IMG/VR virus record: IMGVR_UViG_2630968705_000016
From: a virus
Lineage: Duplodnaviria > Heunggongvirae > Uroviricota > Caudoviricetes
DNA: 26,472 nucleotides
Reading direction: 5' to 3' (one strand)
Shown here: one piece after another, positions 1 through 22,521 of the stretch
Numbering within the stretch: the stretch's first letter is position 1
Layout: every line of letters begins with the position of its first letter
The notes under the pieces: generated by a model
The model's database searches: none
Told to the model about the DNA's origin: nothing
Seen by the model: the letters and a program-made list of their open reading frames with translations, nothing else
Program-made: the position numbers and the translations under genes

Positions 1-555
1 ATGCTTATTGGCTATGTACGTGTGTCAACAAATGACCAGAACACAGATCTACAACGTAATGCGCTGAACTGTGCAGGATGCGAGCTGATTTTTGAAGACA
101 AAATAAGCGGTACAAAGTCCGAAAGGCCGGGACTGAAAAAACTGCTCAGGACATTATCGGCAGGTGACACTCTGGTTGTCTGGAAGCTGGATCGGCTGGG
201 GCGCAGTATGCGGCATCTTGTCGTGCTGGTGGAGGAACTGCGCGAAAGTGGCGTTAATTTTCGCAGCCTGACGGATGCTATTGATACCAGCACGCCGATG
301 GGGCGTTTTTTCTTTCATGTGATGGGTGCCCTGGCTGAAATGGAACGAGAACTGATTGTTGAACGGACAAAAGCTGGACTGGAGGCCGCTCGGGTGCAGG
401 GGCGAATTGGTGGGCGCCGCCCCAAACTTACACCAGAGGAATGGGCGCAGGCCGGGCGATTAATTGTATCAGGAGTTCCTCGCCAGAAGGTGGCTATTAT
501 CTATGATGTTGGTGTGTCAACTTTGTATAAGCGGTTTCCAGTAGGTGATAAATAG
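1..555 (+). CDS. pin: Serine recombinase, DNA invertase (Pin/Hin/Gin/Cin family)
   Basis: 184-aa ORF from ATG at 1. N-terminus MLIGYVRVSTNDQ with catalytic Ser context, VVWKLDRLGRS and C-terminal HTH (VSTLYKRF) match my recollection of Pin/Hin invertases nearly residue for residue. Confidence 0.9.
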   Translation: MLIGYVRVSTNDQNTDLQRNALNCAGCELIFEDKISGTKSERPGLKKLLRTLSAGDTLVVWKLDRLGRSMRHLVVLVEELRESGVNFRSLTDAIDTSTPMGRFFFHVMGALAEMERELIVERTKAGLEAARVQGRIGGRRPKLTPEEWAQAGRLIVSGVPRQKVAIIYDVGVSTLYKRFPVGDK

Positions 556-820
556 AACTAAAGAAAGTTCATAGGTAGGAGTATGCAATGACATATTGTT
601 TGAAATTTATACTATAAAATTAAACGATTAACAGTTTTATACTATATCAAAGCAGATTCAGGACATTTGAGTAGTGAGATAATCGCTTTATTATAGCATC
701 CATATTATGTCGAACATTGTTGCGAAGCCTCTGTAAGGTTAATGCTTGTTTTTATTATAACTATTTGATATGTTGAGTTTTAGATTGCAATATTAATGTC
801 AGTTTAGCGATAAAGGGGAG

Positions 821-1999
821 TTGATGAACAGTTCAGCATTTGTACTTGAAGATAAGAGAGTTGATTGTCTCTCTGTTATTCACACGACAAAATTATCAGA
901 GTATTTATTATTTGCTGAAAAAGCATATGAAGAGAAAGGTGGCATATATGGTCAAAGGGCTCCTCTTAAAACTAAAACTGCTCAAACTATTCGTGAGAGA
1001 ATGGTATCTGATATAATTGATGGGGCTGTTTTACCTCCAATAGTTATCGGAGTAATTGTTGATAATGATACTTATGAGCTTATTAGAAATGTTCGCGATG
1101 ATAAATCATTTGAAGATTTAAATAAAACTATTGATAAATCGTCTTTATCCATTATAGATGGTATGCAAAGAACTACAGCTTTTTTAGAGGCTGTAAAACA
1201 AAGTGAAGAGGTAAAAAATAAGACAATAAGGATAGAATATTGGTTTTCGAAAAGCATGAATAGCCTGATATACAGAATGTTAGTTCTGAATACAGGCCAA
1301 GTTCCATGGGATATAAAAAGGCAATTAGATACTATTTATGACTCTATAATCAAAGAGTTAAAAGAGTCTATACCTAATTTAGACATCAGACTTATTGGGC
1401 AGTCAAGCAGGAGAACGCAAGCAGGCCAATATCAAAGTAGTAAGTTAATAGAGTATTTTTTGTGTTTTTCATCCAGAAAGACTGACATAGACCTTAAAGA
1501 GAAAGTTTCAGAAGATTTTGCTCGCATGGATGCTATTGAGTCAACCTCAGATAATGACTTTTTATCTAAATTTAAATCAGTGCTTAAATTAATGGTTGAC
1601 TTAGATCATGAGTTTTCAAGATTCAAAGATGAGCAGCAGGAGGGGCGCATCAAAGTCGGTAAGGATATATTTACAAGTATTCCTGCTGGTGTAGGGTTTG
1701 TTGCAGCAGCTGCAACATATATTTATGGCCCTCCAGGATTCAAATCCACTAAAGAAGAAAGTGACAGGTGCTGTCAGGATCTTATTAAAAAAGTCTCTGG
1801 TTTAATTGATAAACTCAAAGATTTAAAGGAAAATGAGTTAGGGCTGTTTTTACAGTTTCCTCTTTTAAATGAAAAGTTGAGTGCCAGATCTAGTAAAATA
1901 GGTCAATATGAAAGGGAGTTTTATTATAAAGCTTTTGAAGCTTGTTTTAAATATATTGAAAGATTAGAAGATTTTGGACCATGTTGGCAGGCTAAGTAA
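821..1999 (+). CDS. Hypothetical protein with DGQHR/DUF262-like (ParB/Srx superfamily) motifs; candidate defence component
   Basis: 392-aa ORF in a strongly AT-rich block. RBS AAGGGGAG upstream (start could be the second ATG at 824). Motifs IYGQRAP, then PPIVIGVIV, then SIIDGMQRTTAF (nt 1157-1171) resemble the QR...DGQ(H/Q)R signature of DndB/DUF262 proteins. Stop overlaps the next start (TAATG at 1997-2001). Confidence 0.7.
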   Translation: MMNSSAFVLEDKRVDCLSVIHTTKLSEYLLFAEKAYEEKGGIYGQRAPLKTKTAQTIRERMVSDIIDGAVLPPIVIGVIVDNDTYELIRNVRDDKSFEDLNKTIDKSSLSIIDGMQRTTAFLEAVKQSEEVKNKTIRIEYWFSKSMNSLIYRMLVLNTGQVPWDIKRQLDTIYDSIIKELKESIPNLDIRLIGQSSRRTQAGQYQSSKLIEYFLCFSSRKTDIDLKEKVSEDFARMDAIESTSDNDFLSKFKSVLKLMVDLDHEFSRFKDEQQEGRIKVGKDIFTSIPAGVGFVAAAATYIYGPPGFKSTKEESDRCCQDLIKKVSGLIDKLKDLKENELGLFLQFPLLNEKLSARSSKIGQYEREFYYKAFEACFKYIERLEDFGPCWQAK

Positions 2000-3105
2000 T
2001 GGCAAGAATTAAAGAAAATATAAACTATATTTTTGATGCTATTTGCCATGCTGGTGGTGAAACTGCAACTAGAAAAAAAATGAAGCCGGCACCAGTGGAA
2101 CAAGAGGAAATGAATTGTTTCAAACGGTTAAAATTTAATAAGGGGGAGTCTTTTAGTATATTTAATGGTATTACTATTGCTCACTTCCAAGAAAATATAA
2201 AAGATGATAATGGTTCTGAAATAATTATTGATTATTTTGCGGTTAAAAATATCGCATCATCTGAATTTCAAAGTGAGCTTTATAACAATTATTTTAGTAT
2301 ATATGACTTAACTGAATCTTTTTTTGTTTTTCTTTGCCCTATTTTAAATTTAAAAGTTAAAGATGATATTTCGTCGCAAACTATTTCTAATGATCTGCTT
2401 TTCCAGCAAGAGGATCCTTTATATATAGGGCATAATATTTCTGAATTGATTAATTATTTTGAATCAATAACTATTTTTCGGTTGGAGGATTTATCTACAA
2501 ATTTTAATAACTCTTTTCTTTCTTGCGCGTATTATATACTTACTAGTTGCGAGACTTTTGTTACATTACCACTATCAAAAGCTACTGTTGATAAATTGAA
2601 AAATCTTTTCGTTTGTAATGAAAAAATTCCACAGGATAATATCTTTTTATCATTGACTTCATCGCATTTAAAGCATTGTTATCTCGAATTGTATAGGTGT
2701 ATTGAATGGTTGTATGTGATTCCTAGAAGCAGGAGATTAAAAGGTGTAATTCAATTCCCAAGGCCAGCATATGAGCTGGCTCTTCATTGTATTGATGAAC
2801 TATCTTGGCGTAGAAAAGAAGAGGATTCTTTAGCAAAAATTGTATCTGACGTATTAAAAAAAAATGAAACGCTAAGTTTTAAGTTGTTGGGATGTAAAAT
2901 GTTTTCTGAAGAAAACCTTAATTTTAATAATGTAGCAAAGCATTTATACGCAATACGAAATCAATTCGTTCATCAACTTGAAGCCAAAAGAGAAAAAGTT
3001 GTTAGTGATGATGATATAATAGATGCAATTGAAATAATTGCAGATATCGTCATTTCTGCATACGAGTTATATGATGCCGATATAATTGAATGGCAATGTA
3101 ATTGA
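1999..3105 (+). CDS. Hypothetical protein with C-terminal HEPN-like Rx4H motif (putative RNase effector)
   Basis: 368-aa ORF translationally coupled to the upstream gene, same AT-rich composition. Motif AIRNQFVH (R-N-x-x-x-H, nt 2956-2973) near the C-terminus fits the HEPN Rx4-6H signature. No other recognisable domain. Confidence 0.65.
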   Translation: MARIKENINYIFDAICHAGGETATRKKMKPAPVEQEEMNCFKRLKFNKGESFSIFNGITIAHFQENIKDDNGSEIIIDYFAVKNIASSEFQSELYNNYFSIYDLTESFFVFLCPILNLKVKDDISSQTISNDLLFQQEDPLYIGHNISELINYFESITIFRLEDLSTNFNNSFLSCAYYILTSCETFVTLPLSKATVDKLKNLFVCNEKIPQDNIFLSLTSSHLKHCYLELYRCIEWLYVIPRSRRLKGVIQFPRPAYELALHCIDELSWRRKEEDSLAKIVSDVLKKNETLSFKLLGCKMFSEENLNFNNVAKHLYAIRNQFVHQLEAKREKVVSDDDIIDAIEIIADIVISAYELYDADIIEWQCN

Positions 3106-3917
3106 ATTTTATATGTTGTGATTAATTAATCATCTAGTCACCCAATGAGTATTACAAAGTATATTTTATGCTGGAATGCAAATTGGGTGAGTTATTATAT
3201 AATGGTGATTGGTCATTAAGTGCTGTAGGGCATATATATTAAAAATAAATATGTCTATTTCTGGAAACTACAAAGTATTGGCAAGGTTTTATTATGCTAA
3301 AGGTGTTATTTTATTATTTTAAAATACCTTAGTGTCCATCGTTTATTTTTATTATAAATCAATCTTAAATTTTACAATGCTGATGTATTGCAATTAAAAA
3401 AATGGCTTAAGCTTATTTTTCTTGTTTTTGATATAAATATTAATGTTGTGTTTTTTTTAAAATAAACATTTAACTCATAACTATTATAGTTAATAAAAAG
3501 AAAATAATATTTTATTATATACTATTGAGTTAGTATTCCGTATTGGCGATTTAATTGAAAGATAACGAAATTCTTCCGCCACCGCTTTGAGTTGCGAGAA
3601 AAGTCATCTATTCGAATGCGTATTATGGAATCATGGTTTCATTAATGGTTATTCAGTAGAGAACCATCTTCATCTGGCACAAAATAACGATAGTTATGAC
3701 TGTCTACATCTCGGAAATATAATAATTTTTAATGCGACTTATTGCGGTTTCCTTTTCATATTACCTTGCAACGATCAGTTTTGTAGCTTATTTCTGCAAT
3801 AAAGTTATTTACAGTTTCGCGGTTTTTCTCTTGCATTTGTTCAGTAAAGCAACTTGCCAGCATACTGGACTGCACCTTAATCAGTTGGACGTCCAACTGA
3901 TTAAGGTGCATTTTTTT

Positions 3918-4399
3918 ATGGCAAAGCCAAAATATTCTCTCGAAACCAGTAATCATTATCTTGCCGGACATAATGGCGCACGTCGTATCGCTGAACGTTT
4001 TGGTGTTGAAGAAACATCAGTGCGACGCTGGGTAAGAGCCAGGCAACTCCACGGTATTGATGGTATTACATTGAAAAATGACCGTCACTCTCCTGAGTTT
4101 CGACTGACGGTTGTCCAGAGGGGTCTGAGTGAAGAACTTACCATGCGCGAGGATGCCGCACGGTTTAATATCTCAAATGAATCCGTTGTTAGGCACTGGG
4201 TGAAGATTTACAAAAACACTGGTGAAGAAGGACTTCTGAACATAAAACCAGGCCGGAGCAAGGACATGACAAAACCTCAAAAACACCTCCACTTACCGAT
4301 GCAGAACTGGAAAAGTTATCTCCCGAAGAACTGCGGACTCAACTCCGTTACCTTCGCGCAGAAAATGCCTATCTAAAAAAGCTGAAGGCCTTAGTTTAA
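3918..4399 (+). pseudogene. IS3-family transposase OrfA, frameshifted
   Basis: Starts MAKPKYSLETSNHYLAGHNGARRIAERFGV (HTH). The expected C-terminus ...ELRTQLRYLRAENAYLKKLKALV is readable only in a different frame from the N-terminal part, implying a frameshift near 4270-4300. Confidence 0.7.
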
Positions 4400-5266
4400 A
4401 GCGAGAAAAACGGGAGAAAGCCCGGATAATCAGTGAATTAAGGCTGAAGCATGCGCTCGGTGATCTTCTGCGTGCCGCGGGGATGTCCCGCAGTACGTGG
4501 TATCACAATATGAATGCCCTGAAGCGAGTGGACAGGCATGCCGGACTGAAAGACAAAAACAGAGAGATTTATCACTATCACAAAGGGCGTTATGGCTACC
4601 GCAGAATCACGCTCTCACTGGGAAACAGGGCTTGTTGGTAAACCATAAAACAGTGTAGCGGCTGATGGCAGAGCTGTCGCTCCGCTCTGTGATAAGGGTG
4701 AAGAAATATCGTTCTTGGAAAGGGGAAGTAGGCAAGGCTGCGCCCAACATCCTGAGCCGGAACTGTGGTGCAACGAAGGCCAACGAAAAATGGGTGACGG
4801 AAGTTACAGAATTCTCGGTACAGGGTAAAAAGCTGTACCTGTCGCCAGTTCTCGATCTGTTTAACCGGGAGATTATCTCCTACAGCCTGTCAGAAAGGCC
4901 GGTGATGTAGATGGTTAATACGATGCTGCACGATGCATTCCCAGTGATCGGCCCGGAGGATGCACTGTTGCTGCACACGGATCAGGGCTGGCAATATCGA
5001 ATGGCAGGCTATCAGGCAAAGTTAAAGGCTAAGGGAATGACACAAAGCATGTCGTGCAAGGGAAACTGCCTGGATAACGCAGTGATGGAGAACTTCTTCG
5101 GCACACTGAAATCGGAGTGTTTTTACCTGAACAGGTTCAGCGATCCAGATTAACTGAGGAAGGCTATAGAGGACTATATCCATTATTATAACAACGAGCG
5201 GATCAGCCTGAAATTAAAAGGCCTGAGTCCGGTAGAATACCGAATCCAGGCCCTGAAAACCGCTTA
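4381..5266 (+). pseudogene. IS3-family transposase OrfB (DDE integrase core), disrupted
   Basis: OrfB-like sequence (…WVTEVTEF…[23 protein letters not shown]…, …LLLHTDQGWQY…CLDNAVMENFFGTLKSE…) is split across frames, with a frame break near 4640 and in-frame stops at 4908-4910 (TAG) and 5151-5153 (TAA). Confidence 0.7.
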
Positions 5267-5438
5267 ATATGAGCTGTCCAACTTTATGGGGCAGTCCATA
5301 AGTGGGCTTCTATGTCACTAAAGAGCTGCGGCTCCTTTGCGTATCCTTTTTTGTCTCCTCACCGTCTGGTCGGTGTCTTACTTAGACTGCTAACTTCTTG
5401 TTTTTATTGGTGTTGTCCTTACACCGTCCAATCATGAT

Positions 5439-5466
5439 TGGTGGAGCTGGCGGGAGTTGAACCCGC
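5439..5466 (-). other. tmRNA (ssrA) 3'-end fragment, likely att-site remnant
   Basis: Minus strand reads GCGGGTTCAACTCCCGCCAGCTCCACCA, matching the 3' terminal 28 nt of E. coli ssrA as I recall it. Flanking sequence does not continue as ssrA. Confidence 0.6.
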
Positions 5467-5767
5467 AGACACGTCGTATGCAAGAACTTGCTGCGGCTGG
5501 ATGGTGGACTTTCGATAGTGCGAGTATTGAATGATTTCCATCTATTATAGATTTTACCGTATTTCGGCATGAATGAAACTGAATATCCTCCCACCGACCC
5601 TCCATGACTTTACACCACTGTCTCTGGGGCTGCTATGTGCCAGTAGAGGACGTTGCTAGTGTCAGCCTATGTTAATCAACAGGGAGCAGGTCACACTGTC
5701 GTCTCAGAATACCTAGCGCATAGGTCACACGAACTTCCAACTGTATTGCTTGTTTTCGTGGCTAAGC

Positions 5768-6907
5768 CTATTTTTGTTGATGATACCAATGCAACATCAT
5801 CCGGAGCTTCAATAGAGTTGTACTGTCATCATCCTCAGAACAAAAATTGTATCGCCCGCCTGAATATTCATTTAACTTGTCCAAGTAAAAGCCACCCATT
5901 GGGTCATATCTATCAGAGTGGAGCCAAGTAAACATTTTCTGAAGAACGTAATGCAGGGCATTTTTCGGAAGTGTTGAAATCAACACGCCATGCTTAGTTG
6001 CTAAATCCTCAATATTCATTTCCTGAAGATTATATCTAATCTCTACTGCAATTGGATGTAGTTTACTTAAAAATACGTCAGCTTCATCCTTGAGATGTGC
6101 CTCTTTAACATTCCCCTCGAACAACTTTATTAACTCTTCCACTTCCATTCGGTAATAATCGTTATCACCTCGCACCGCAACTTCTGAAAGAAGCAACTTT
6201 AACTCAGCATGAATGTTATCAGTAGACGGTATAATCTGTTTGGATAGGGTGCTGTAATGTTTTATACGGATTGCTATTACGGAACCCTTTAGGCTTGTTA
6301 GATATTTATACCTATCTTCAATATATGTAATTAGCTCATCGAATTTAATGCCGAAAATAACATCATCTTTCCCTGGCGTGTTGTTGTAAAGGCTTATAGT
6401 GAAATCATTTTCATTGAAAGCATGAAAATGAGGCCAGCTTGCAAACAGTCGCTCACCATCACTATTTTTAAGATTTGTAGGGTGAGCACCAAAGATAGCT
6501 CGAATACTCTTAAAGTATGCGTCATCATCCTCATGTGAAAGATAGGGCGTTTTATTCTTAAAGACATTCGTTGATTTCTTGAAAGGCCACCTCGCTAACT
6601 TATCATCACTCTCAATGATGCGGTGAAGCTGCTGCAACGCCTCCACAGCAATATCAATAGATGATATAAGGCAGTAAACCTGCATGGCCTTGACATCAAT
6701 ATCTTCCGACAGCTCAGGGAAGTTCATCAGATTGCGAACAGAAACGCTTATCCAATCCATGCACGAACAGATAGGGCTGAACTGGTTTTTACCATTTCTG
6801 TTTATGAAGTAGCTGTAAGCAAACTCCCCTTCATTAACCACATCTCGAAAATCAGTTATTAAAGTATCATCAATAGTTACACCAAAATCTGCCTTGGTCA
6901 TCTTCAT
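5768..6907 (-). CDS. Hypothetical protein (about 379 aa), AT-rich orphan gene
   Basis: Long minus-strand ORF. The six-frame track starts at a TTG (6922); the first ATG is at 6907 and a second at 6901. No clear SD. No domain recognised by eye. Confidence 0.75.
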   Translation of the reverse strand: MKMTKADFGVTIDDTLITDFRDVVNEGEFAYSYFINRNGKNQFSPICSCMDWISVSVRNLMNFPELSEDIDVKAMQVYCLISSIDIAVEALQQLHRIIESDDKLARWPFKKSTNVFKNKTPYLSHEDDDAYFKSIRAIFGAHPTNLKNSDGERLFASWPHFHAFNENDFTISLYNNTPGKDDVIFGIKFDELITYIEDRYKYLTSLKGSVIAIRIKHYSTLSKQIIPSTDNIHAELKLLLSEVAVRGDNDYYRMEVEELIKLFEGNVKEAHLKDEADVFLSKLHPIAVEIRYNLQEMNIEDLATKHGVLISTLPKNALHYVLQKMFTWLHSDRYDPMGGFYLDKLNEYSGGRYNFCSEDDDSTTLLKLRMMLHWYHQQK

Positions 6908-7301
6908 GGAAATCACTTTCAAATCAGCACACTTAGAGGTTGATTGTGACCGTTATCATAGGCAAAAACAATTCAGTAGGTTGACCAGCCCCCCCCCATA
7001 ACGCAAAATTGCTCGATTTAAGTATGCATTCCAACTTCCGCTCCTCGCTCATAACAGACATTCACTACAGTTATGGTAGAAGGTATGCATGCTGGGTGGG
7101 GAAAGTATGAAGGAAAAGAAGGCTGCTGTGTCGTTTGACATCACTGCAATCTTCTTATTGGTTATGCGGGTCGTAGTGGGACAAAACTGAGACACATAAG
7201 GCCTAGCAATGGCTTGCAAGGCTTTACATGTTTTGATGTGGTGGGACTTGTGAGCGCAGTGTTGATGGGGTAATGCTTTGAATTAGAAGCGGATTCTTAT
7301 A

Positions 7302-7347
7302 ATTCGTAATGCGAAGGTCGTAGGTTCGACTCCTATTATCGGCACCA
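7302..7347 (+). other. Partial tRNA-Thr(CGU) (thrW-like) 3' portion; integrase att core
   Basis: ATTCGTAATGCGAAGGTCGTAGGTTCGACTCCTATTATCGGCACCA matches the anticodon loop through the CCA end of E. coli tRNA-Thr(CGU). The 5' half (GCCGATATAGCTCAG...) is absent upstream. Confidence 0.7.
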
Positions 7348-7364
7348 TTCAAACATCTCCCCAA

Positions 7365-7450
7365 GTCTACTAAAGTCTTTCAAAACCCCTTATAATCCGC
7401 GTATTAAAGCCCCGTTCGTCTTTTGACGTCTACTAAAGTCCCTCAAAATC
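7365..7450 (+). promoter_or_regulatory. Two direct repeats (GTCTACTAAAGTCyyTCAAAA), putative integrase arm-type binding sites
   Basis: Near-identical 21-23 bp copies at 7365-7386 and 7428-7450, between the tRNA fragment and the integrase start. Confidence 0.4.
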
Positions 7451-7512
7451 TACGGTCAGATGGGGGTACTTATGGGGGTATTTGCTGTTCGGTTTAGTGG
7501 AGGTACCCCCAA

Positions 7513-8727
7513 GTGAAACTCAATGCCCGTCAAATAGACACAGCCAAGCCAAAAGAGAAGGCTTACAAGCTGGCCGATGGTGGCGGTTTGTATCTCTTGG
7601 TAAAACCTAATGGAGGTAAATACTGGCGACTTAAATATCGTGTAGCTGGTAAAGAGAAGCTATTGGCACTAGGTGTGTATCCTGAGGTTACTCTAGCCGA
7701 TGCTCGGGCAAAACGAGAAGATGCGAAAAGAGGTATCGCTGGTGGTATCGATCCGATGGAAGCGAAACGAGAGGAAAAGATTGCCCGGGAAACGCAGTTA
7801 AACAACACCTTCAAAGATATTGCCCTTGAGTGGCACAGCAGCAAATTAAAAAAATGGTCTGCTGGTTATGCTTCAGACATCCTCGAAGCCTTCAACAAAG
7901 ATGTGTTCCCTTACATTGGCAAAAAACCAATCGCCGAAATCAAACCACTTGAACTTCTGAATGTGCTGCGGCGCATCGAGGGGCGCGGTGCGACAGAAAA
8001 AGCCAAAAAAGTGAGGCAGCGGTGCGGGGAAGTTTTCCGTTATGCAATAGTCACTGGTCGCGCAGAGTATAACCCTGCACCAGACCTTACTAGCGCGATG
8101 CAAGGCCATGAATCTAATCATTACCCTTTCCTTACGACCAAAGAATTACCTGATTTTTTCAAGGCATTGTCCAGTTACTCAGGAAGCGCATTGGTTGTTA
8201 TGGCGGCTCGTCTACTGATTATCACCGGCTTGCGAACTGGCGAACTACGTGGCGCATTATGGGATGAAATTGATTTCAACAAGGCTATATGGGAGATACC
8301 CGCTTCACGTATGAAAATGCGGCGGCCTCATATTGTGCCATTGTCTGAGCAGGCTCTTTCGCTTATTGGGAAGATTAGAGAAATAACAGGCAATTACCCT
8401 CTTATGTTTCCCGGGCGCAATGATCCAAGGAAAACAATGAGTGAGGCCAGCATAAACCAAGTGTTTAAGCGCATTGGCTACGCTGGACGTGTAACTGGTC
8501 ATGGGTTCCGACACACTATGAGCACGATTTTGCATGAGCAGGGCTATAACACCGCGTGGATAGAAACGCAGCTCGCTCACGTTGATAAGAACTCAATTCG
8601 TGGCACATACAACCATGCGCAATATCTGGATGGACGGCGGGAGATGCTTCAATGGTATGCCGACTATATGGATTCTCTCGAGCATGGCGGAAATGTGGTG
8701 CATATGGTGTTTGAAAAACACGCATGA
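7513..8727 (+). CDS. int: Tyrosine recombinase, P4-type phage integrase
   Basis: 404 aa, GTG start with GGAGG RBS. N-terminal signature (KLNARQIDTAKPKEK...DGGGLYLLVKPNGGKYWRLKYR) typical of P4-family integrases. Catalytic elements GLRTGELR, HGFRHT and RGTYNHA (R, HxxR, Y) present. Confidence 0.93.
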   Translation: MKLNARQIDTAKPKEKAYKLADGGGLYLLVKPNGGKYWRLKYRVAGKEKLLALGVYPEVTLADARAKREDAKRGIAGGIDPMEAKREEKIARETQLNNTFKDIALEWHSSKLKKWSAGYASDILEAFNKDVFPYIGKKPIAEIKPLELLNVLRRIEGRGATEKAKKVRQRCGEVFRYAIVTGRAEYNPAPDLTSAMQGHESNHYPFLTTKELPDFFKALSSYSGSALVVMAARLLIITGLRTGELRGALWDEIDFNKAIWEIPASRMKMRRPHIVPLSEQALSLIGKIREITGNYPLMFPGRNDPRKTMSEASINQVFKRIGYAGRVTGHGFRHTMSTILHEQGYNTAWIETQLAHVDKNSIRGTYNHAQYLDGRREMLQWYADYMDSLEHGGNVVHMVFEKHA

Positions 8728-9154: not shown

Positions 9155-9358
9155 ATGGCTAATTACAATTCATTAATTCGTCTCTCTGAAGTTCAAAGGC
9201 GAACTGGTTATAGCAAAGCATGGATTTATCGTCTTATTAGTCAGGGGAGGTTCCCTAAACAGGTAAAAATTGGAAGTCGGGCAATTGCTTTTGTTGAGTC
9301 TGAAATAGATGAATGGATTGAGAAGTGTATATTAGAATCTAGAGACGAGGTGGCCTGA
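9155..9358 (+). CDS. alpA: AlpA-family transcriptional regulator / excisionase-like protein
   Basis: 67 aa; IRLSEVQRRTGYSKAWIYRLISQGRFPKQVKIG...ESEIDEWI matches the AlpA/Vis HTH pattern. Confidence 0.85.
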   Translation: MANYNSLIRLSEVQRRTGYSKAWIYRLISQGRFPKQVKIGSRAIAFVESEIDEWIEKCILESRDEVA

Positions 9359-10807: not shown

Positions 10808-11241
10808 TACCCATCCAGAAGAAGACATTTTCACTGGCTGGTATGTCGCCAAAATCCAGAAATATGACGGCAAAGTCAGGCATTAATACAGCAGATACAA
10901 GCAAAGTTTATCATTTGCTGGTGGCCGGAACGGATGCCTTAACCATACCAGAAATCTCGGGCGATGATATTAGCCTTGAGAAGGTCAGCGGCTGCGCCAG
11001 AAAATTTCTGGTCGTAGATGATGTCTTCCGCTCGTGTAGTGACTCCACAAAAACATTCGTCCACGCGCGTGACGTTAACGAAATGAGCGCGATGTACTGT
11101 GCTTCTGGTTCTTCCAATAGTGAGTTTTCGGAGTCCATAAAAAAGAGCTTGCCGTTATGCGGCAACACGGTTTATGGTTATAAGGCACCTCATAAAACGG
11201 GTGCCGGGTTTCGCAGCCCGGAAATGTACGAGGCGACACAT

Positions 11242-11263
11242 GACGCGCCGAGCGTCTTTTTTT
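11242..11263 (+). terminator. Rho-independent terminator-like hairpin plus T7 run
   Basis: GACGC-GCCGA-GCGTC hairpin (11242-11256) followed by TTTTTTT (11257-11263). Lies inside the annotated 355-aa ORF 10804-11871. Confidence 0.5.
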
Positions 11264-11465
11264 GTGCCGTTAGCCAGACTCACACTTTTTTCAGTGATGT
11301 GGTTATAATCCGCGTCGCTTGCAAAATTATGGTGGGCTGGACAGGGCAGCCGAAAGGCTGGCCGGTTTCCTTGTACGCCGGTACTGCGAACTCTGTTCAG
11401 TCCACCACCAGCGAGTTTCGCAGCTCCGGTGGTGGGAAGAATTCCCAGTACAAGGAGGCTGCCAC

Positions 11466-17352: not shown

Positions 17353-17814
17353 ATGGAACTAAAATTTATTGATAACCCTGTGCGATTACAGGCCTTTCTT
17401 AACGAGCCAGGCAATACCGAAAATATTGTTGAGCCGGGGCACACGTACTACATCAAGCCTGATGCGGTATATCTCGGCATCTACGAAGGATTAGTGCTGG
17501 CTGGCGTTCATGAAGTGCGTAACTTCTGGCATAGCGTTGTTGAATGCCATGCGGTGTACGACCCCGGATTCCGTGGTGAATATGCACTGCAAGGGCATCG
17601 ATTATTCTGCAAATGGCTTCTCGAAAACTCACCATTCCTTAACAGCATTACCATGGTTCCTGACACCACCAAATACGGACGGGCAATTATCCGTTTGCTT
17701 GGCGCTACCCGTGTTGGTCACCTTGATGATGCTTATATCAGATGTGGTAAACCCGTCGGCGTAACGCTTTATCAGTTAACTCGGCAACAATATAAGGAAT
17801 TCAGCGAATGTTAA
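17353..17814 (+). CDS. Hypothetical protein (153 aa), first gene of the ejection-like cassette
   Basis: ORF coupled to the downstream gene (ATGTTAA overlap); no domain recognised. Confidence 0.7.
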   Translation: MELKFIDNPVRLQAFLNEPGNTENIVEPGHTYYIKPDAVYLGIYEGLVLAGVHEVRNFWHSVVECHAVYDPGFRGEYALQGHRLFCKWLLENSPFLNSITMVPDTTKYGRAIIRLLGATRVGHLDDAYIRCGKPVGVTLYQLTRQQYKEFSEC

Positions 17815-18485
17815 TTACCCACATAGCTCATAAACATCTCAATCGTGCCGTATACGAAAAAGGCGGTGATGGTGGTGCCTCTAAAGCTCAGGCGAAGGCC
17901 CAGCAGCAGGCAATTGATTTGCAGCGCGAGCAGTGGAATACGGTGATGAATAATCTCAAGCCGTATGCAGAAGTCGGATTGCCTGCTTTACAACAACTAC
18001 AAGGACTGATGACTCTGGAAGGGCAGAATAAAGCCGCGAATGATTTCTTTGGTTCTGGTTTATATAAAACACAGGCAGATCAGGCCCGTTATCAGAACCT
18101 TGTCTCAGCAGAAGCTACCGGGGGGCTTGGCTCAACAGCTACCAGTAACCAGTTATCTTCCATTGCGCCCATGCTTTATAACAATTGGCTCAGTGGGCAA
18201 ATGCAAAATTATGGAAACCTGCTAAATGTCGGGATGAATGCGGCATCAGGGCAGGCAACGGCAGGGCAAAACTACGCCAATAATACCGGACAACTCTTGC
18301 AGGGGCTTGGCGCTATTCGTGCAGGTCAGGCGCAGCAGCCATCCAGTCTTGCGCGTGGTATTGGTGGGGCAGCATCAGGCGCTTTAGCGGGTGCGCAACT
18401 TGGTTCCGTTGTTCCTGGAATAGGAACTGCGGCCGGCGCTATTGGTGGTGGGCTTATTGGTCTTGTTGGGGGGCTTGGATTCTAA
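17808..18485 (+). CDS. Hypothetical protein with glycine-zipper-like C-terminus (225 aa), internal-virion/ejection-like
   Basis: Q/A/N/G-rich; C-terminal GIGGAASGALAGAQLGSVVPGIGTAAGAIGGGLIGLVGGLGF suggests a membrane-inserting glycine zipper. Coupled to flanking genes. Confidence 0.75.
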   Translation: MLITHIAHKHLNRAVYEKGGDGGASKAQAKAQQQAIDLQREQWNTVMNNLKPYAEVGLPALQQLQGLMTLEGQNKAANDFFGSGLYKTQADQARYQNLVSAEATGGLGSTATSNQLSSIAPMLYNNWLSGQMQNYGNLLNVGMNAASGQATAGQNYANNTGQLLQGLGAIRAGQAQQPSSLARGIGGAASGALAGAQLGSVVPGIGTAAGAIGGGLIGLVGGLGF

Positions 18486-19804
18486 TGGCGACATGGCAAC
18501 TTGGCGGGCTGCCTAGCATGGCACCGCAAAATGATAATGCTCCTCGTTCTTCCGTTCCTCAGCCTGTGCAGTATCAGCAGCAGCCAAACGTAGGTTTAAT
18601 GGCGCTACAGGGGCTAAGAGGCGTTGCTGAGATTAATCAGCAGGCGCAAATTTCCCAGCAGTTAAAAGAATATCAGGCACGGTTGGGTAGTGCGGTAGCT
18701 AATAATGATCGTGTTGGCGTGCAGAAGTTAATGGCCCAGTATCCCCAGTTTATGGCTGATTCTCAAAAACAGATGGGATTCATTGATGCTGAGCAAAATC
18801 GACAGACCGCTGACGCTGCCATGAATCTGCGTCTTGCGTCACAAACTGGAGATCCACTGACCATGCAGAAGGCCATTCAGCAGGCAAATCCAGTATTACA
18901 GCGATTTGGTCTTCCTGCTGAAGAGGTTTATCAGTCTTGGCAGAATGACCCACAGGAATTCAACAGAATCACTGACCTCATCCACCTCCATGCTGATCCA
19001 AATAGTTACTTTAGTGTTCAAGAGAAGCAGCAAGGGCAGAGCATTGCACAGCAGAACGCAGATACATCCGCATATAATGCTCAGGTTAATGCGGAACAGG
19101 GTAATCGACGTCTCGATATGGAGCAGTTCAAAGTCCTATCCGATAACCAACTACGCACGAGAGAAATGGTTCTGAAAGCACGACTTGGACGTGCTCAAAA
19201 TGACATCGAGAGAGACAAGCTCAATGCTGAACTGAGCAAGATACAGCAGGCGAAAGTGGAGAAGATGAACGATAAAATTAATACTGTTGCAGGTAACATC
19301 GACTCCTTGAACTCTGCGCTTGAAGTGGGTCATGAACTGGCGGGAATTGTAGGGAAACATCCTTCGGCCGTTACCCGCTCGCAGAACTATAACCCCCTGA
19401 CGCTGGGGTTTGGATTCCTTCCTGATGTAGCAGAAGACACACGAAGCCTACGCGCCAAAGCTGATGAATACAACCTAAAGGTTATTCTGCCTAGCCTCAA
19501 AGGGACTTTTGGCTCTAACCCAACCGAAGGGGAAAGGGCTGCCCTTATGCAATCTCAAAATGGCATTAAGTCAGCAACCAGCAATGAGGCATTTTTGCGA
19601 GAGTTGAATAAAGCGCAGGACGTAATTATTCGAATGCAGAAACGACAGATTGCCGGGCTCGGTATTCCTGTAACCAAATCTAAGGACGAAGAAACTGATA
19701 CCAAAATGCTGTTGCAGGATCCTTCACTGGTTAAGGATTATGTGACCGCACATGGCTATCTGCCGGAAAGTTACTATCAGGCAAAACTTAAGGGATGGCA
19801 ATGA
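18485..19804 (+). CDS. Hypothetical Q-rich protein (439 aa), internal-virion/ejection-like
   Basis: Start overlaps the upstream stop (TAATG); low-complexity Q/N/A-rich composition typical of phage internal core proteins. Confidence 0.8.
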   Translation: MATWQLGGLPSMAPQNDNAPRSSVPQPVQYQQQPNVGLMALQGLRGVAEINQQAQISQQLKEYQARLGSAVANNDRVGVQKLMAQYPQFMADSQKQMGFIDAEQNRQTADAAMNLRLASQTGDPLTMQKAIQQANPVLQRFGLPAEEVYQSWQNDPQEFNRITDLIHLHADPNSYFSVQEKQQGQSIAQQNADTSAYNAQVNAEQGNRRLDMEQFKVLSDNQLRTREMVLKARLGRAQNDIERDKLNAELSKIQQAKVEKMNDKINTVAGNIDSLNSALEVGHELAGIVGKHPSAVTRSQNYNPLTLGFGFLPDVAEDTRSLRAKADEYNLKVILPSLKGTFGSNPTEGERAALMQSQNGIKSATSNEAFLRELNKAQDVIIRMQKRQIAGLGIPVTKSKDEETDTKMLLQDPSLVKDYVTAHGYLPESYYQAKLKGWQ

Positions 19805-22521
19805 TGGCACAACTGACAGAAAAACAGAAAGCCTATTCCCGTCATCTCGATGAAAAATATGGTTTCCCATCAGGGACGATGGAAACATTAGTTGGCAATG
19901 AATCTAGTGGTAACGGAAGTGCCGAGTCACCGAAAGGAGCTAGAGGATTTGCTCAACTGATGCCCTCAGTAATGAGTGATGCTGGTTATCGTGGAACAGA
20001 TCCGCGCTCACTGCCATTTGAAAAGCAAATGGATATCGCAGCAAACCATCTCAATAAAGGAATGAAGCGATTTGGTGATATAGGTATGGCATTGGCTGGG
20101 TATAATTCTGGCTATGCTCGTATTAATGCCGTCAGAAACGGTAAATCTACACTGCCAGATGAAACGGCTAATTACGTAAGTAAATTTGCAGATGCCGGAA
20201 TAATCCCTGATGACAGTGAAATCTTGCAGTTTGCACAAACCAGTCAACATCGCAATCTTCAGCAGCCTGACTACTCAGAGCTTGATAAAGAAATCTCTCA
20301 GGTGGGAGATATTTCTGCATGGGAAGCAAAACGTCAGCAATTTAAGAACATAGAAGCAGGACTACCAACAGCCAGTTCATGGGAGCAGAAAAGAGCTCAG
20401 TTTCTCGCCGATGAAAATGCCGGGGAACCGCAGCAGCAAGTAGCCAAGTCTAACCTTAATCCTGAGATGGAATATCTTTCGCCAGGACTGAAAGCTGCGC
20501 CAGAGCAGATGGCCAGAGGGATTGCTAATATACCGTTTGATGTAATGGACGCAGGCGTGGGGGTAGTCAATGCGGCGCAATCAGCCGGAGCATGGGCAGC
20601 TCAGAAGCTTGGTGTGGGTGATGGCACATACACGCCCATATCACCTGTCTTTCGCCCAGTAGACCAACCTACAGATCCATACGCGCAGGCTGGTGAGCAG
20701 CTAGCACCTTACCTTATTACAGGATTAGGTGTAGGAAAGGCAGCTACCGCAGCTTCTTCAGTTGCCAACGCTCCACGTGCTGAACGTGCGGCCACAAAGG
20801 TGGCTAGTATGTTGGCAGAAAACCTGCCAGGTACATTGGTGAACGCCCAAAAGAACGGGCAGATCAGCCCAGAAGACCTAGCAAAAGAGACAGGTATTGG
20901 CCTAGCAGGATCGCTAGGAGCACGCGCTTTAATAAAGAGCGGACAGACAGCCAGTGACGTAATGCGAGATGTATTGCGGAGTAATACAAATCAATCAGGC
21001 CATGTGTTAGGGGCAGCAAATACTCTGGAAACCGCCAATGATGTATCGAAAGCAGCGCGTTCTGCCGTAGGCCGAGAGCATATCGCATCGCAGGCATCAA
21101 ACGTCAGAGATGATGTCGCTAAGGCGGCGAAAATCACTGGTATTAATATCAACACCCTGACGCCTGGAATGCGCTCAGGTAGTCGTGGAATTGCCCAAGC
21201 AGAAGGTGTTCTGGCATCAACTCCTGGGAATGTTCAGGATGCTCACCTTACGGCCTTCAATGAAATATCCTCAAAGTTGAATAAGCAGTTGTCTGATTTC
21301 GGTGCTGAGTCTGGAAGCGCATCAGAAAAAAGCGCAGCAATTAAAGAGCGCATCATCGCGAGCCTCAGTGATATGAAAACAGCAGAGAATATGGCATGGG
21401 CAGAACTGCGAAGCACGATGCCACGCGAAAGGATGAAAATGAGTAATGGGATGGCTGTCGTCCAAGCAGAAAAAGCAGCCAATGTTCCACTCAGCCCGGA
21501 GATGAAACAGTTTCAGGCTGCCAACAACCAAGGTGGCGGCATAACCTTCGACGGGATGAAGGCATGGCGTGCTAAGTTTGCTGATGCTGAACAAGCAAAC
21601 ACCCGGGCAGGTAAGGCCAATGCCGCCCGGATTGCCGGAGAAATGCGCAGAGCTATCACTGATGACATGCGCATCATGGCTGAAAAAGGAAACTTCCTCA
21701 CAGAATGGCAGAAAGCTAACGATCTCTCTAAAAGTTACATTATCGCCAAACAAAATGCCGAATCTGTTTTTGGTCGAGATCTCGCATCAGACGCTATGGT
21801 AAGAAAAGGTGCCGATACGCTTAAGGCATCCGCAAACACTGGAACGGGAGCTTTTCACCGTCTTATCTCCGCGCTGCCGGAAGCAGAACGCCAACCTGCA
21901 ATAGCATCTATTCTTCAGCATGCTGTGGCGCAGGGAGAGAAGGGAGGAATCGGTGAAGAGTCAGGTATCCAGTATTTTGCCAAGCTCATGACCCAGCAGA
22001 ATGTAAACGCCATCAGTCGTCATGCGCCAGATCTCGGTAGAATGATGAAAGAGTTCGGTGTACTCGCTAAAGCCAGTACCAGACCGCAGCGATACGTAGA
22101 GCGCACGGGAAGAACAACTGAGGCTCTCAAAACGCTCGATTCAGGCCTTCCAAAGATCGTCGGCGTGATTATGAACGGTGTTCAACAGTCAGGTGCGATC
22201 GCTGGAGGCTTTGGCGGTGGTGTAATTGGTTCGATTAGTGGTTTGGTTGCTGGTGGCGCGCTAAGAAATGCTGTGGCTAAGATTGGGGCGACAAGAAGTG
22301 GTCGATATGCGATAGAGAAAGCCGTTCAGGAAGCTACAAAAGCAGTGCGCGCAGGGGCATCACCAGCAGCGATCGCCGCAGCAGAGAAACGATTTTCGGC
22401 CAATAAAATTGCCATGAAAGCAATTCGTGATGCCGTTGGGGCTGAAGAATTCGTGAAACTGACAAGGGCCGGGATTGTAGCTACCCTCAGTGGCATGAAA
22501 GATGTTAGCGAATGGGAATAG
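19795..22521 (+). CDS. Large protein with N-terminal lytic transglycosylase (SLT) domain (908 aa), T7 gp16-like architecture
   Basis: N-terminal motifs ESSGN (catalytic Glu context), GFAQLMP and AGYNSGYA match SLT family signatures. The remainder is long and A/G/Q/S-rich with a glycine-rich segment (GAIAGGFGGGVIGSISGLVAGG) near the C-terminus. Confidence 0.88.
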   Translation: MAMMAQLTEKQKAYSRHLDEKYGFPSGTMETLVGNESSGNGSAESPKGARGFAQLMPSVMSDAGYRGTDPRSLPFEKQMDIAANHLNKGMKRFGDIGMALAGYNSGYARINAVRNGKSTLPDETANYVSKFADAGIIPDDSEILQFAQTSQHRNLQQPDYSELDKEISQVGDISAWEAKRQQFKNIEAGLPTASSWEQKRAQFLADENAGEPQQQVAKSNLNPEMEYLSPGLKAAPEQMARGIANIPFDVMDAGVGVVNAAQSAGAWAAQKLGVGDGTYTPISPVFRPVDQPTDPYAQAGEQLAPYLITGLGVGKAATAASSVANAPRAERAATKVASMLAENLPGTLVNAQKNGQISPEDLAKETGIGLAGSLGARALIKSGQTASDVMRDVLRSNTNQSGHVLGAANTLETANDVSKAARSAVGREHIASQASNVRDDVAKAAKITGININTLTPGMRSGSRGIAQAEGVLASTPGNVQDAHLTAFNEISSKLNKQLSDFGAESGSASEKSAAIKERIIASLSDMKTAENMAWAELRSTMPRERMKMSNGMAVVQAEKAANVPLSPEMKQFQAANNQGGGITFDGMKAWRAKFADAEQANTRAGKANAARIAGEMRRAITDDMRIMAEKGNFLTEWQKANDLSKSYIIAKQNAESVFGRDLASDAMVRKGADTLKASANTGTGAFHRLISALPEAERQPAIASILQHAVAQGEKGGIGEESGIQYFAKLMTQQNVNAISRHAPDLGRMMKEFGVLAKASTRPQRYVERTGRTTEALKTLDSGLPKIVGVIMNGVQQSGAIAGGFGGGVIGSISGLVAGGALRNAVAKIGATRSGRYAIEKAVQEATKAVRAGASPAAIAAAEKRFSANKIAMKAIRDAVGAEEFVKLTRAGIVATLSGMKDVSEWE

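Follow-up and report, generated by a model that had tools for sequence, protein, structure and literature searches.

A partial thrW tRNA copy in front of a P4-type integrase as the very probable internal attachment site of a prophage–island tandem

Why is the integrase gene of a P4-type island preceded at this locus by a fragment of a tRNA gene? The int-proximal junction of such islands normally carries an intact tRNA, as the original prediction for this locus had stated and as held for 22 of the 24 closest integrase relatives in other species, where about 165 nt separate an intact tRNA-Thr(CGT) from the downstream int. In contrast, the core copy in the window (the whole stretch of 26,472 nt analyzed here, whose first letter is position 1) is partial.

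The segment at 7302–7347 on the plus strand (ATTCGTAATGCGAAGGTCGTAGGTTCGACTCCTATTATCGGCACCA) matched exactly positions 31–76 of the 76-nt thrW gene for tRNA-Thr(CGU), for which the intact copy of E. coli APEC E19025 was used as the reference. The anticodon is included in this 46-nt partial copy. The claim that only the 3′ 46 nt of tRNA-Thr(CGU) is present was thus confirmed by an exact match, and no intact tRNA-Thr was found immediately upstream: ARAGORN detected no tRNA in the whole window, Rfam at the gathering threshold detected none in the same range, and the bases directly left of 7302 (GCGGATTCTTATA) differed from the corresponding thrW bases (GTAGAGCAGCGC). A 28-nt piece of the tRNA 3′ end occurred once in the window, compared with 0.00 occurrences expected from shuffled sequences. 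Within the partial copy, the plus-strand segment at 7309–7331 coincides base for base with the attP core of the P22 record (feature 21300–21322; ATGCGAAGGTCGTAGGTTCGACT), a 23-mer quoted elsewhere as the P22 attP site (bioRxiv 10.1101/2020.10.05.325894), and is presumed to be the crossover region of the P22-type integrase. The last 18 nt, at 7330–7347 on the same strand (CTCCTATTATCGGCACCA), form the identity block of P4-type integrases at thrW, as judged from the internal remnants in MS1170 and in Enterobacter intestinihominis (L024) and from the island attR in APEC E19025.

The DNA to the left of the core was assigned to the right end of an upstream phi458-like prophage of the P22-type integrase family (1–7301) by identity to two known prophage ends. 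Positions 1–7348 were 99.9% identical to the prophage end in E. coli GPEC620-622 (L091), and positions 5460–7357 matched the phage phi458 record at its attR (right) end with 99.4% identity. According to protein family matches, this end contains a pin invertase gene (1–555), DzbA/DzbB genes (821–3105), and a decayed IS3 (about 3732–5150); a 384-aa ORF without a family match is located on the minus strand (5768–6922). The conserved prophage arm adjoining the core (7013–7301, plus strand), whose final bases are TTCTTATA, aligned with phi458 attR and P22 attP and is regarded as the attR arm of a P22-type element. In many E. coli genomes, similarity to the window began at about 7013–7038 and continued through the junction, and the cargo further to the left differed.

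The phi458 record contains the 46-mer at its start and again at its right end, where the native thrW flank follows. Because this record represents an excerpted prophage that runs from attL past attR into host flank, and not a true attP, P22 attP was used for the attP comparison; the integrases of phi458 and P22 are 90% identical. P22 attP holds the same 46 nt as 7302–7347, preceded by the same left flank as in the window. The breakpoint at 7302 is therefore the exact edge of the 46-nt identity of P22-type attP and phi458, and the flank carries on as phage arm. A P22/SfV-type site is recognized by a 46-nt identity to the thrW 3′ part at the distal prophage end: for SfIV, SfI, and SfV in thrW, a 46-bp att site has been reported at either end of the prophage (PMC3851460), and P22-like phages have been described as rebuilding thrW upon integration (bioRxiv 10.1101/2020.10.05.325894). 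Since a P22-type attP shares 46 nt with thrW, every integration event leaves a partial tRNA of 46 nt at the distal prophage end.

The right end of the prophage also carries genes unrelated to attachment. The reading frame at 821–1999 matched DzbA (E = 2e-54) and that at 1999–3105 matched DzbB (E = 1e-7) of the Dazbog anti-phage system, and the pair is located between the pin invertase gene and the decayed IS3. Its slot is occupied by RnlA/RnlB in NZ_CM151362, and by a type II restriction-modification pair and a GIY-YIG gene in HeN100; the position looks like a variable defence-cargo slot adjoining attR. A run of nine C at about 6990–6998 is located about 70 nt upstream of the start of the minus-strand 384-aa ORF and close to about 7013, where similarity to other prophage variants starts.

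The sequence from 7302 to the end of the window differed at 1 of 19,171 positions from an island in APEC E19025, in which an intact thrW, beside proA, directly precedes the same island and integrase. When the window was searched against 5,426 complete E. coli genomes, the best island matches all started exactly at 7302, and none of these genomes covered at least 80% of the window. The integrase gene (7513–8727, plus strand, GTG start at 7513) encodes a P4-type tyrosine integrase of 404 aa with the same three Pfam domains as P4 Int, Arm-DNA-bind_3, Phage_int_M, and Phage_integrase (E = 1e-28, 1e-34, and 2e-26, respectively), and with 42% identity to P4 Int over 405 aa (E = 3e-116). No meaningful similarity was found between this integrase and P22 Int, and the two are unrelated beyond the catalytic fold. 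A small DNA-binding protein of the AlpA/Vis family, consisting of 67 aa, is encoded at 9155–9358 on the plus strand (Pfam Phage_AlpA, E = 7e-20; 39% identity to P4 Vis, E = 3e-14) and is a candidate recombination directionality factor. Together with a core formed by a tRNA 3′ end ending at CCA and with 12-nt arm repeats, the three-domain integrase and the encoded AlpA/Vis protein identify a P4-type module. The island carries int, alpA, a primase gene (Toprim and DUF927), and C4/isrK RNAs. The genes sid, psu, and delta were neither annotated in the complete APEC E19025 copy of the island nor present among the Pfam-scanned ORFs, and the element is therefore called a P4-type island here and not a P4-like satellite in the strict sense.

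The arrangement of the two halves was examined in relatives. NZ_CM151362, which was 99.6% identical to the junction region (6800–7800), has the order proA, intact thrW, P22-type int (99% identical to phi458 Int), about 20 kb of prophage, 46-nt core, and P4-type int. The same order was found in HeN100 with a complete prophage of about 42 kb. The intact thrW is thus about 20 kb and about 42 kb upstream of the junction, respectively, with the prophage integrase at that end. A 206-nt probe centered on the core, for which 80% coverage requires both sides, revealed the hybrid junction in 148 of the 5,426 complete E. coli genomes; a P22-type integrase adjoins thrW in about 1,550 genomes. The two-part make-up was visible when the window junction was aligned with the thrW–island junction, P22 attP, phi458 attR, and an empty thrW site. 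Based on the identities of both halves and the layout in the relatives, the region at 7302–7450 is very probably the internal attachment site of a tandem array at thrW, in which the prophage attR and the attL of the P4-type island share the core at 7302–7347. The first of two explanations offered in the original prediction, tandem insertion into the same tRNA with this copy as an internal junction, was thereby supported. The core copy would be partial because of the upstream prophage. The window starts inside the prophage and holds only the internal site; by analogy with the relatives, an intact thrW would be located at the other end of the prophage, beyond the window, as it is visible in NZ_CM151362 and HeN100, and the distal att site of the island is visible in APEC E19025.

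The length of the partial tRNA indicated which integrase system had produced it. E. coli MS1170 (L088 32805–33395) has two P4-type islands in tandem at thrW, and the internal remnant there is only 18 nt, identical to the block at 7330–7347. Phytobacter sp. V91 (L018) and E. intestinihominis were the only 2 of the 24 closest integrase relatives without an intact tRNA, and their partial thrW copies were about 46 nt and 18 nt, respectively, which suggests that both kinds of tandem junction occur in other genera. Where the upstream element was of the P4 type (MS1170 and L024), the internal remnant was 18 nt, not 46. At the far end of the APEC E19025 island (L003 32748–32763), which was located through the arm-repeat pair, the attR core TCCTATTATCG-CACCA lacks one G compared with thrW and is followed by the native flank, taken from the K-12 strain ATCC 98082, whose thrW site is empty. 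This 1-nt deletion may block precise excision of the island. Because the identity block of the island is 17–18 nt and the remnants behind P4-type elements are 18 nt, the 46-nt remnant in the window was made by the P22-type system and not by the island integrase. Two unrelated integrases thus appear to read adjacent parts of the same remnant, 7309–7331 (P22-type) and 7330–7347 (P4-type). A second copy of the tRNA 3′ end was not found in the complete island when 28 nt with up to 3 mismatches or 14–24 nt with 1–5 mismatches were used as queries; the island block is only 17–18 nt long and contains the 1-nt deletion. In an MG1655 derivative, examined as a K-12 source of a CP4-6 comparator, no integrase was found beside thrW and the locus looked rearranged, so that MS1170 was used instead.

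These results suggest that a partial tRNA preceding an integrase gene reveals by its length which integrase family produced it; at thrW, 46 nt would indicate an upstream P22/SfV-type prophage and 18 nt another P4-type island upstream. A partial tRNA remnant can be taken as a prompt to seek a tandem partner, rather than as a reason to call an island degraded or integrated at a secondary site.

The genomes used in these comparisons showed further peculiarities. The first element of MS1170, behind an intact thrW, is an intact P4-like satellite with sid, psu, and delta, an AAA ATPase, and an S8 peptidase. The second is a decayed copy of the attL in the window, with one arm repeat lost and int truncated, and lies beside the vat autotransporter toxin gene. 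GPEC620-622 has the prophage right end and 46-nt core of the window joined to another P4-type satellite, which carries a reverse transcriptase. At its opposite end this prophage is truncated; thrW, proAB, phoE, and crl are apparently deleted there, and pepD abuts an int fragment.

In the tandem, the island attR (TCCTATTATCG(G)CACCA, then TTAAAATCAAAGAG) would be located about 20.7 kb to the right of 7302. As each element retains both of its own arms, we infer that each should still be able to excise alone. Excision of the prophage would restore thrW directly before the island, and excision of the island would place the prophage attR beside the native flank. Both single-occupancy states were observed: in APEC E19025 the island directly follows thrW, and in the phi458 record the native flank adjoins the prophage attR.

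As for the order of arrival, the phage probably came second, using the intact thrW of a host in which the island was already present. The opposite order, with a resident prophage whose attR offered its 46-nt remnant as the integration site for a P4-type island arriving later, is possible but doubtful. It would give a product identical in sequence, the 46-nt remnant holds the whole 18-nt block and the 28 nt to its left (T-arm bases included), and the P4-type satellite behind this prophage end varies from strain to strain, which fits satellites reaching an occupied site. However, a late island could also have picked the intact thrW and given the order thrW, island, 18 nt, prophage. This order was sought with a query consisting of thrW plus the prophage attL: in a small spread sample of 45 matches, matches started at query positions 1, 31–32, and 74, and none started at about 59. 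A late phage, in contrast, would be limited to the intact thrW, since the island attR keeps only 17–18 nt, and the only order that it could produce is the one observed. In addition, the island looks old and partly decayed, with the 1-nt deletion in the attR core and a primase gene truncated in some copies, and phi458-type phages are inducible and active.

Two explanations that dispense with a tandem were judged extremely improbable. Integration of the island at a secondary (pseudo-attB) site away from thrW, the second alternative in the original prediction, with the 46-mer brought in by the island, would agree with the lack of a visible intact tRNA in the window, but it is contradicted by the identity block of the island itself (17–18 nt, not 46), by the left flank being a prophage attR, by the exact coincidence of the breakpoint with the P22-type attP identity, and by the other end of the prophage abutting the intact thrW beside proA in the relatives. 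Loss of the 5′ part of thrW by deletion, IS-mediated rearrangement, or misassembly instead of site-specific recombination could be suspected from the decayed IS3 about 2 kb upstream and from the apparent deletion of thrW and proAB in GPEC620-622, but the breakpoint falls at the exact edge of the 46-nt P22/phi458 identity with the flank continuing as phage arm, and 148 complete genomes that were assembled independently share this junction.

To the right of the core, attL was compared with attP of P4, with feature positions counted from the tRNA CCA end. In the GenBank record of P4, a 12-nt repeat annotated as "attP arm sequence repeat" forms tandem pairs that flank the core and recurs in inverted orientation at the int start. 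In the window, a tandem pair of 12-nt repeats (ATGGGGGTACTT and ATGGGGGTATTT) is present in the P′ arm at 7460–7483 on the plus strand, just beyond the range of the original prediction, and a third, inverted copy (AGGTACCCCCAA; 7501–7512, minus strand) abuts the int start codon, where that of P4 overlaps the int start. The pair is located at +115 and +127 in both elements (GGGGGCA in P4 and GGGGGTA in the window), the inverted copy at +155 in P4 and +157 in the window, and the start of the MKLNARQ reading frame at +164 and +166, respectively. Two further direct repeats, between the core and the arm pair, are located at +19 and +82 in P4 and at +18 and +81 in the window, so that the distances of all attL features from the CCA end are equal within 2 nt. 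A repeat pair on the far arm was seen near the far end of the near-identical APEC E19025 island; the pair on this arm is located at −95/−83 in P4, −94/−82 in MS1170, and −97/−85 in APEC E19025.

This architecture is common among relatives. In 68 of 80 loci (the window and 79 relatives), two direct copies spaced by exactly 12 nt were accompanied by an inverted one at the int start, compared with only 38 of 1,600 shuffled sequences and 14 of 480 shifted windows (2.4–2.9%). The arm motif varied by clade among GGGGGTA, GGGGGCA, GGGGGCC, GTGTATAG, and TTGTATAG, with all copies changing together, and the copy in the P arm covaried as well (APEC E19025 and MS1170). From the P4-like geometry and this in-step variation, 7460–7483 and 7501–7512 were assigned as putative Int arm-type sites. 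The comparison yields a clean map of a P4-type attL, and the in-step variation of the 12-nt motif can be used for studying the specificity of the Arm-DNA-bind_3 domain.

The two direct repeats that the original prediction had placed after the core are real. Box 1 (GTCTACTAAAGTCTTTCAAAA; 7365–7385, plus strand) has its GTCTAC 18 nt after the CCA end, and Box 2 (GTCTACTAAAGTCCCTCAAAA; 7428–7448, plus strand) has its GTCTAC at +81 and is followed by a third half-site, ATCTAC at 7448–7453, so that the whole element covers 7428–7453. The two 21-nt repeats are identical at 19 of 21 positions with a start-to-start spacing of 63 nt. Their counterparts in P4 are the direct repeats TCCGAG..GTCC, likewise spaced by 63 nt. 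Their positions were kept in relatives from other genera, and in another clade the box core changed from GTCTAC to GTCAAC in all copies together. In the far-arm comparison, which included APEC E19025 and MS1170, the boxes were found only on the int side and were absent from the far arm. Boxes of the TCTAC type occurred with GGGGGTA, GGGGGCA, GTGTATAG, and TTGTATAG arms, and those of the TCAAC type occurred with GGGGGCA arms; box type and arm type assort independently. Loci whose AlpA was about 63–88% identical to that of the window mostly had TCTA(C/T) boxes whatever the arm motif, and in the TCAAC clade AlpA was only 42–50% identical to that of the window. Box type thus followed AlpA type, with two exceptions.

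P4 Vis binds attP DNA (PMC2603039), and both Int and Vis of P4 repress Pint (PMC7286903). In KplE1 (CPS-53) of E. coli K-12, attL carries sites for the recombination directionality factor (RDF) and P′ arm sites over the int promoter, the RDF sites being located between the core and the P′ arm sites, and Int and RDF repress int in a negative autoregulation (PMC2951348). Given this KplE1 layout, the attP binding of P4 Vis, and the agreement of box type with AlpA type, the 21-nt boxes are most likely sites of the excision factor AlpA/Vis, an assignment that we hold as probable. The original prediction had regarded the 21–23 bp repeats as arm-type sites; this is probably wrong, as the counterparts of the repeats annotated as arm repeats in P4 are the 12-mers at 7460–7483 and 7501–7512. 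In P4, Vis reportedly has two boxes that lie after the core and before the Int arm sites (Cali et al. 2004).

That the 21-nt repeats are nevertheless Int arm-type sites, possibly of a second class beside the 12-mers, appears unlikely. They are direct, lie inside attL at a conserved position, and change in step from TCTAC to TCAAC between clades. However, the P4 record marks the 12-mers and not the box region as arm repeats, the 12-mers are present on both arms, as arm-type sites are, whereas the boxes are confined to the int side, and the box type follows the AlpA/Vis type independently of the arm type. Sub-repeats at a spacing of about 10 nt are, moreover, typical of excision factors (PMC7498355). 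A reading of the boxes as IHF sites was dropped; the motif changes with the element clade and by eye is unlike the consensus WATCAANNNNTTR.

From the core outward, attL would accordingly consist of the 18-nt tRNA end as the island core, two AlpA/Vis boxes, the pair of 12-nt Int arm sites, and the inverted third arm site. The latter, at the int start, probably allows Int to repress its own gene. A consensus promoter scan of 7200–7600 found no sigma-70 promoter between the core and int, a point against the autoregulation model. As in KplE1, the tRNA and int have the same orientation, and the whole attL, with core, RDF sites, and P′ arm sites, is located between them. KplE1 differs in that it has an integrase of another clade, the target argW, and the RDF TorI; a regulation of this kind in the window is putative.

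The likeness to P4 covers a core that coincides with a tRNA gene 3′ end and stops at CCA, the G5-type arm repeats of 12 nt with a pair per arm and an inverted copy at the int start, and the two direct repeats 63 nt apart between the core and the arm pair. The two elements differ in target (leuX in P4 and thrW for the island in the window), in arm motif (GGGGGCA and GGGGGTA), and in boxes (TCCGAG/GTCC and GTCTAC). Unlike P4, the island in the window has no annotated sid, psu, or delta, its gene content includes P22-like ejection-protein genes, and its site is seen not as attP, but as attL fused to the attR of another element. The thrW site of P22 and of SfV, SfI, and SfIV is like that in the window in having the same 46 nt, and the left flank TTCTTATA is common with P22 attP. 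The body of the prophage differs from P22, phi458 being lambdoid with a long tail and the HeN100 variant having a contractile tail, and the right neighbor of attR in the window is the island and not the native thrW flank.

Tandem arrays of this sort have been described before. In tandems of phage-inducible chromosomal islands (PICI), three related att sites define the tandem pair (PMC10111431), and in Salmonella Typhimurium the island StmGI_0323 was reported in tandem with a P22-like prophage at thrW (PMC5575072), an island/prophage tandem as in the window. The partners differ from those in StmGI_0323 and the PICI tandems, and the elements in the window use unrelated integrases on adjacent parts of the same 46 nt. 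Every component of the junction, namely the P4 module, the P22/SfV site, the attL–int arrangement of KplE1, and the att-site tandem, has a close known counterpart. The junction is an ordinary structure of an already known kind; the main value of the analysis is in annotation, and the current understanding is unchanged.

The island shows an odd combination of a P4-type backbone and podovirus ejection-protein genes. The region at 17353–22521 contains P22-like genes for DUF2824 (gp14-like), gp7, and the gp20 injectosome translocase; the gp16 position is taken by a gene for a 908-aa protein that contains an SLT lytic transglycosylase domain. Because the island carries these gp14, gp7, gp20, and gp16-like genes and is located directly downstream of P22-integrase prophages, the side-by-side placement might be more than the accident of a shared hotspot, with the 46-nt remnant serving as a landing pad for the island and the linkage coupling induction or packaging. 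We regard this as very unlikely; if true, it would represent a new, helper-linked kind of satellite.

In the ash/icd-like region of the island, Rfam detected isrK (69 bits) and C4 antisense RNA (81 bits) at 11185–11262 and 11325–11412, respectively. Judging from these matches, the pair is assigned as an RNA immunity module in the style of P1/P7/P4.
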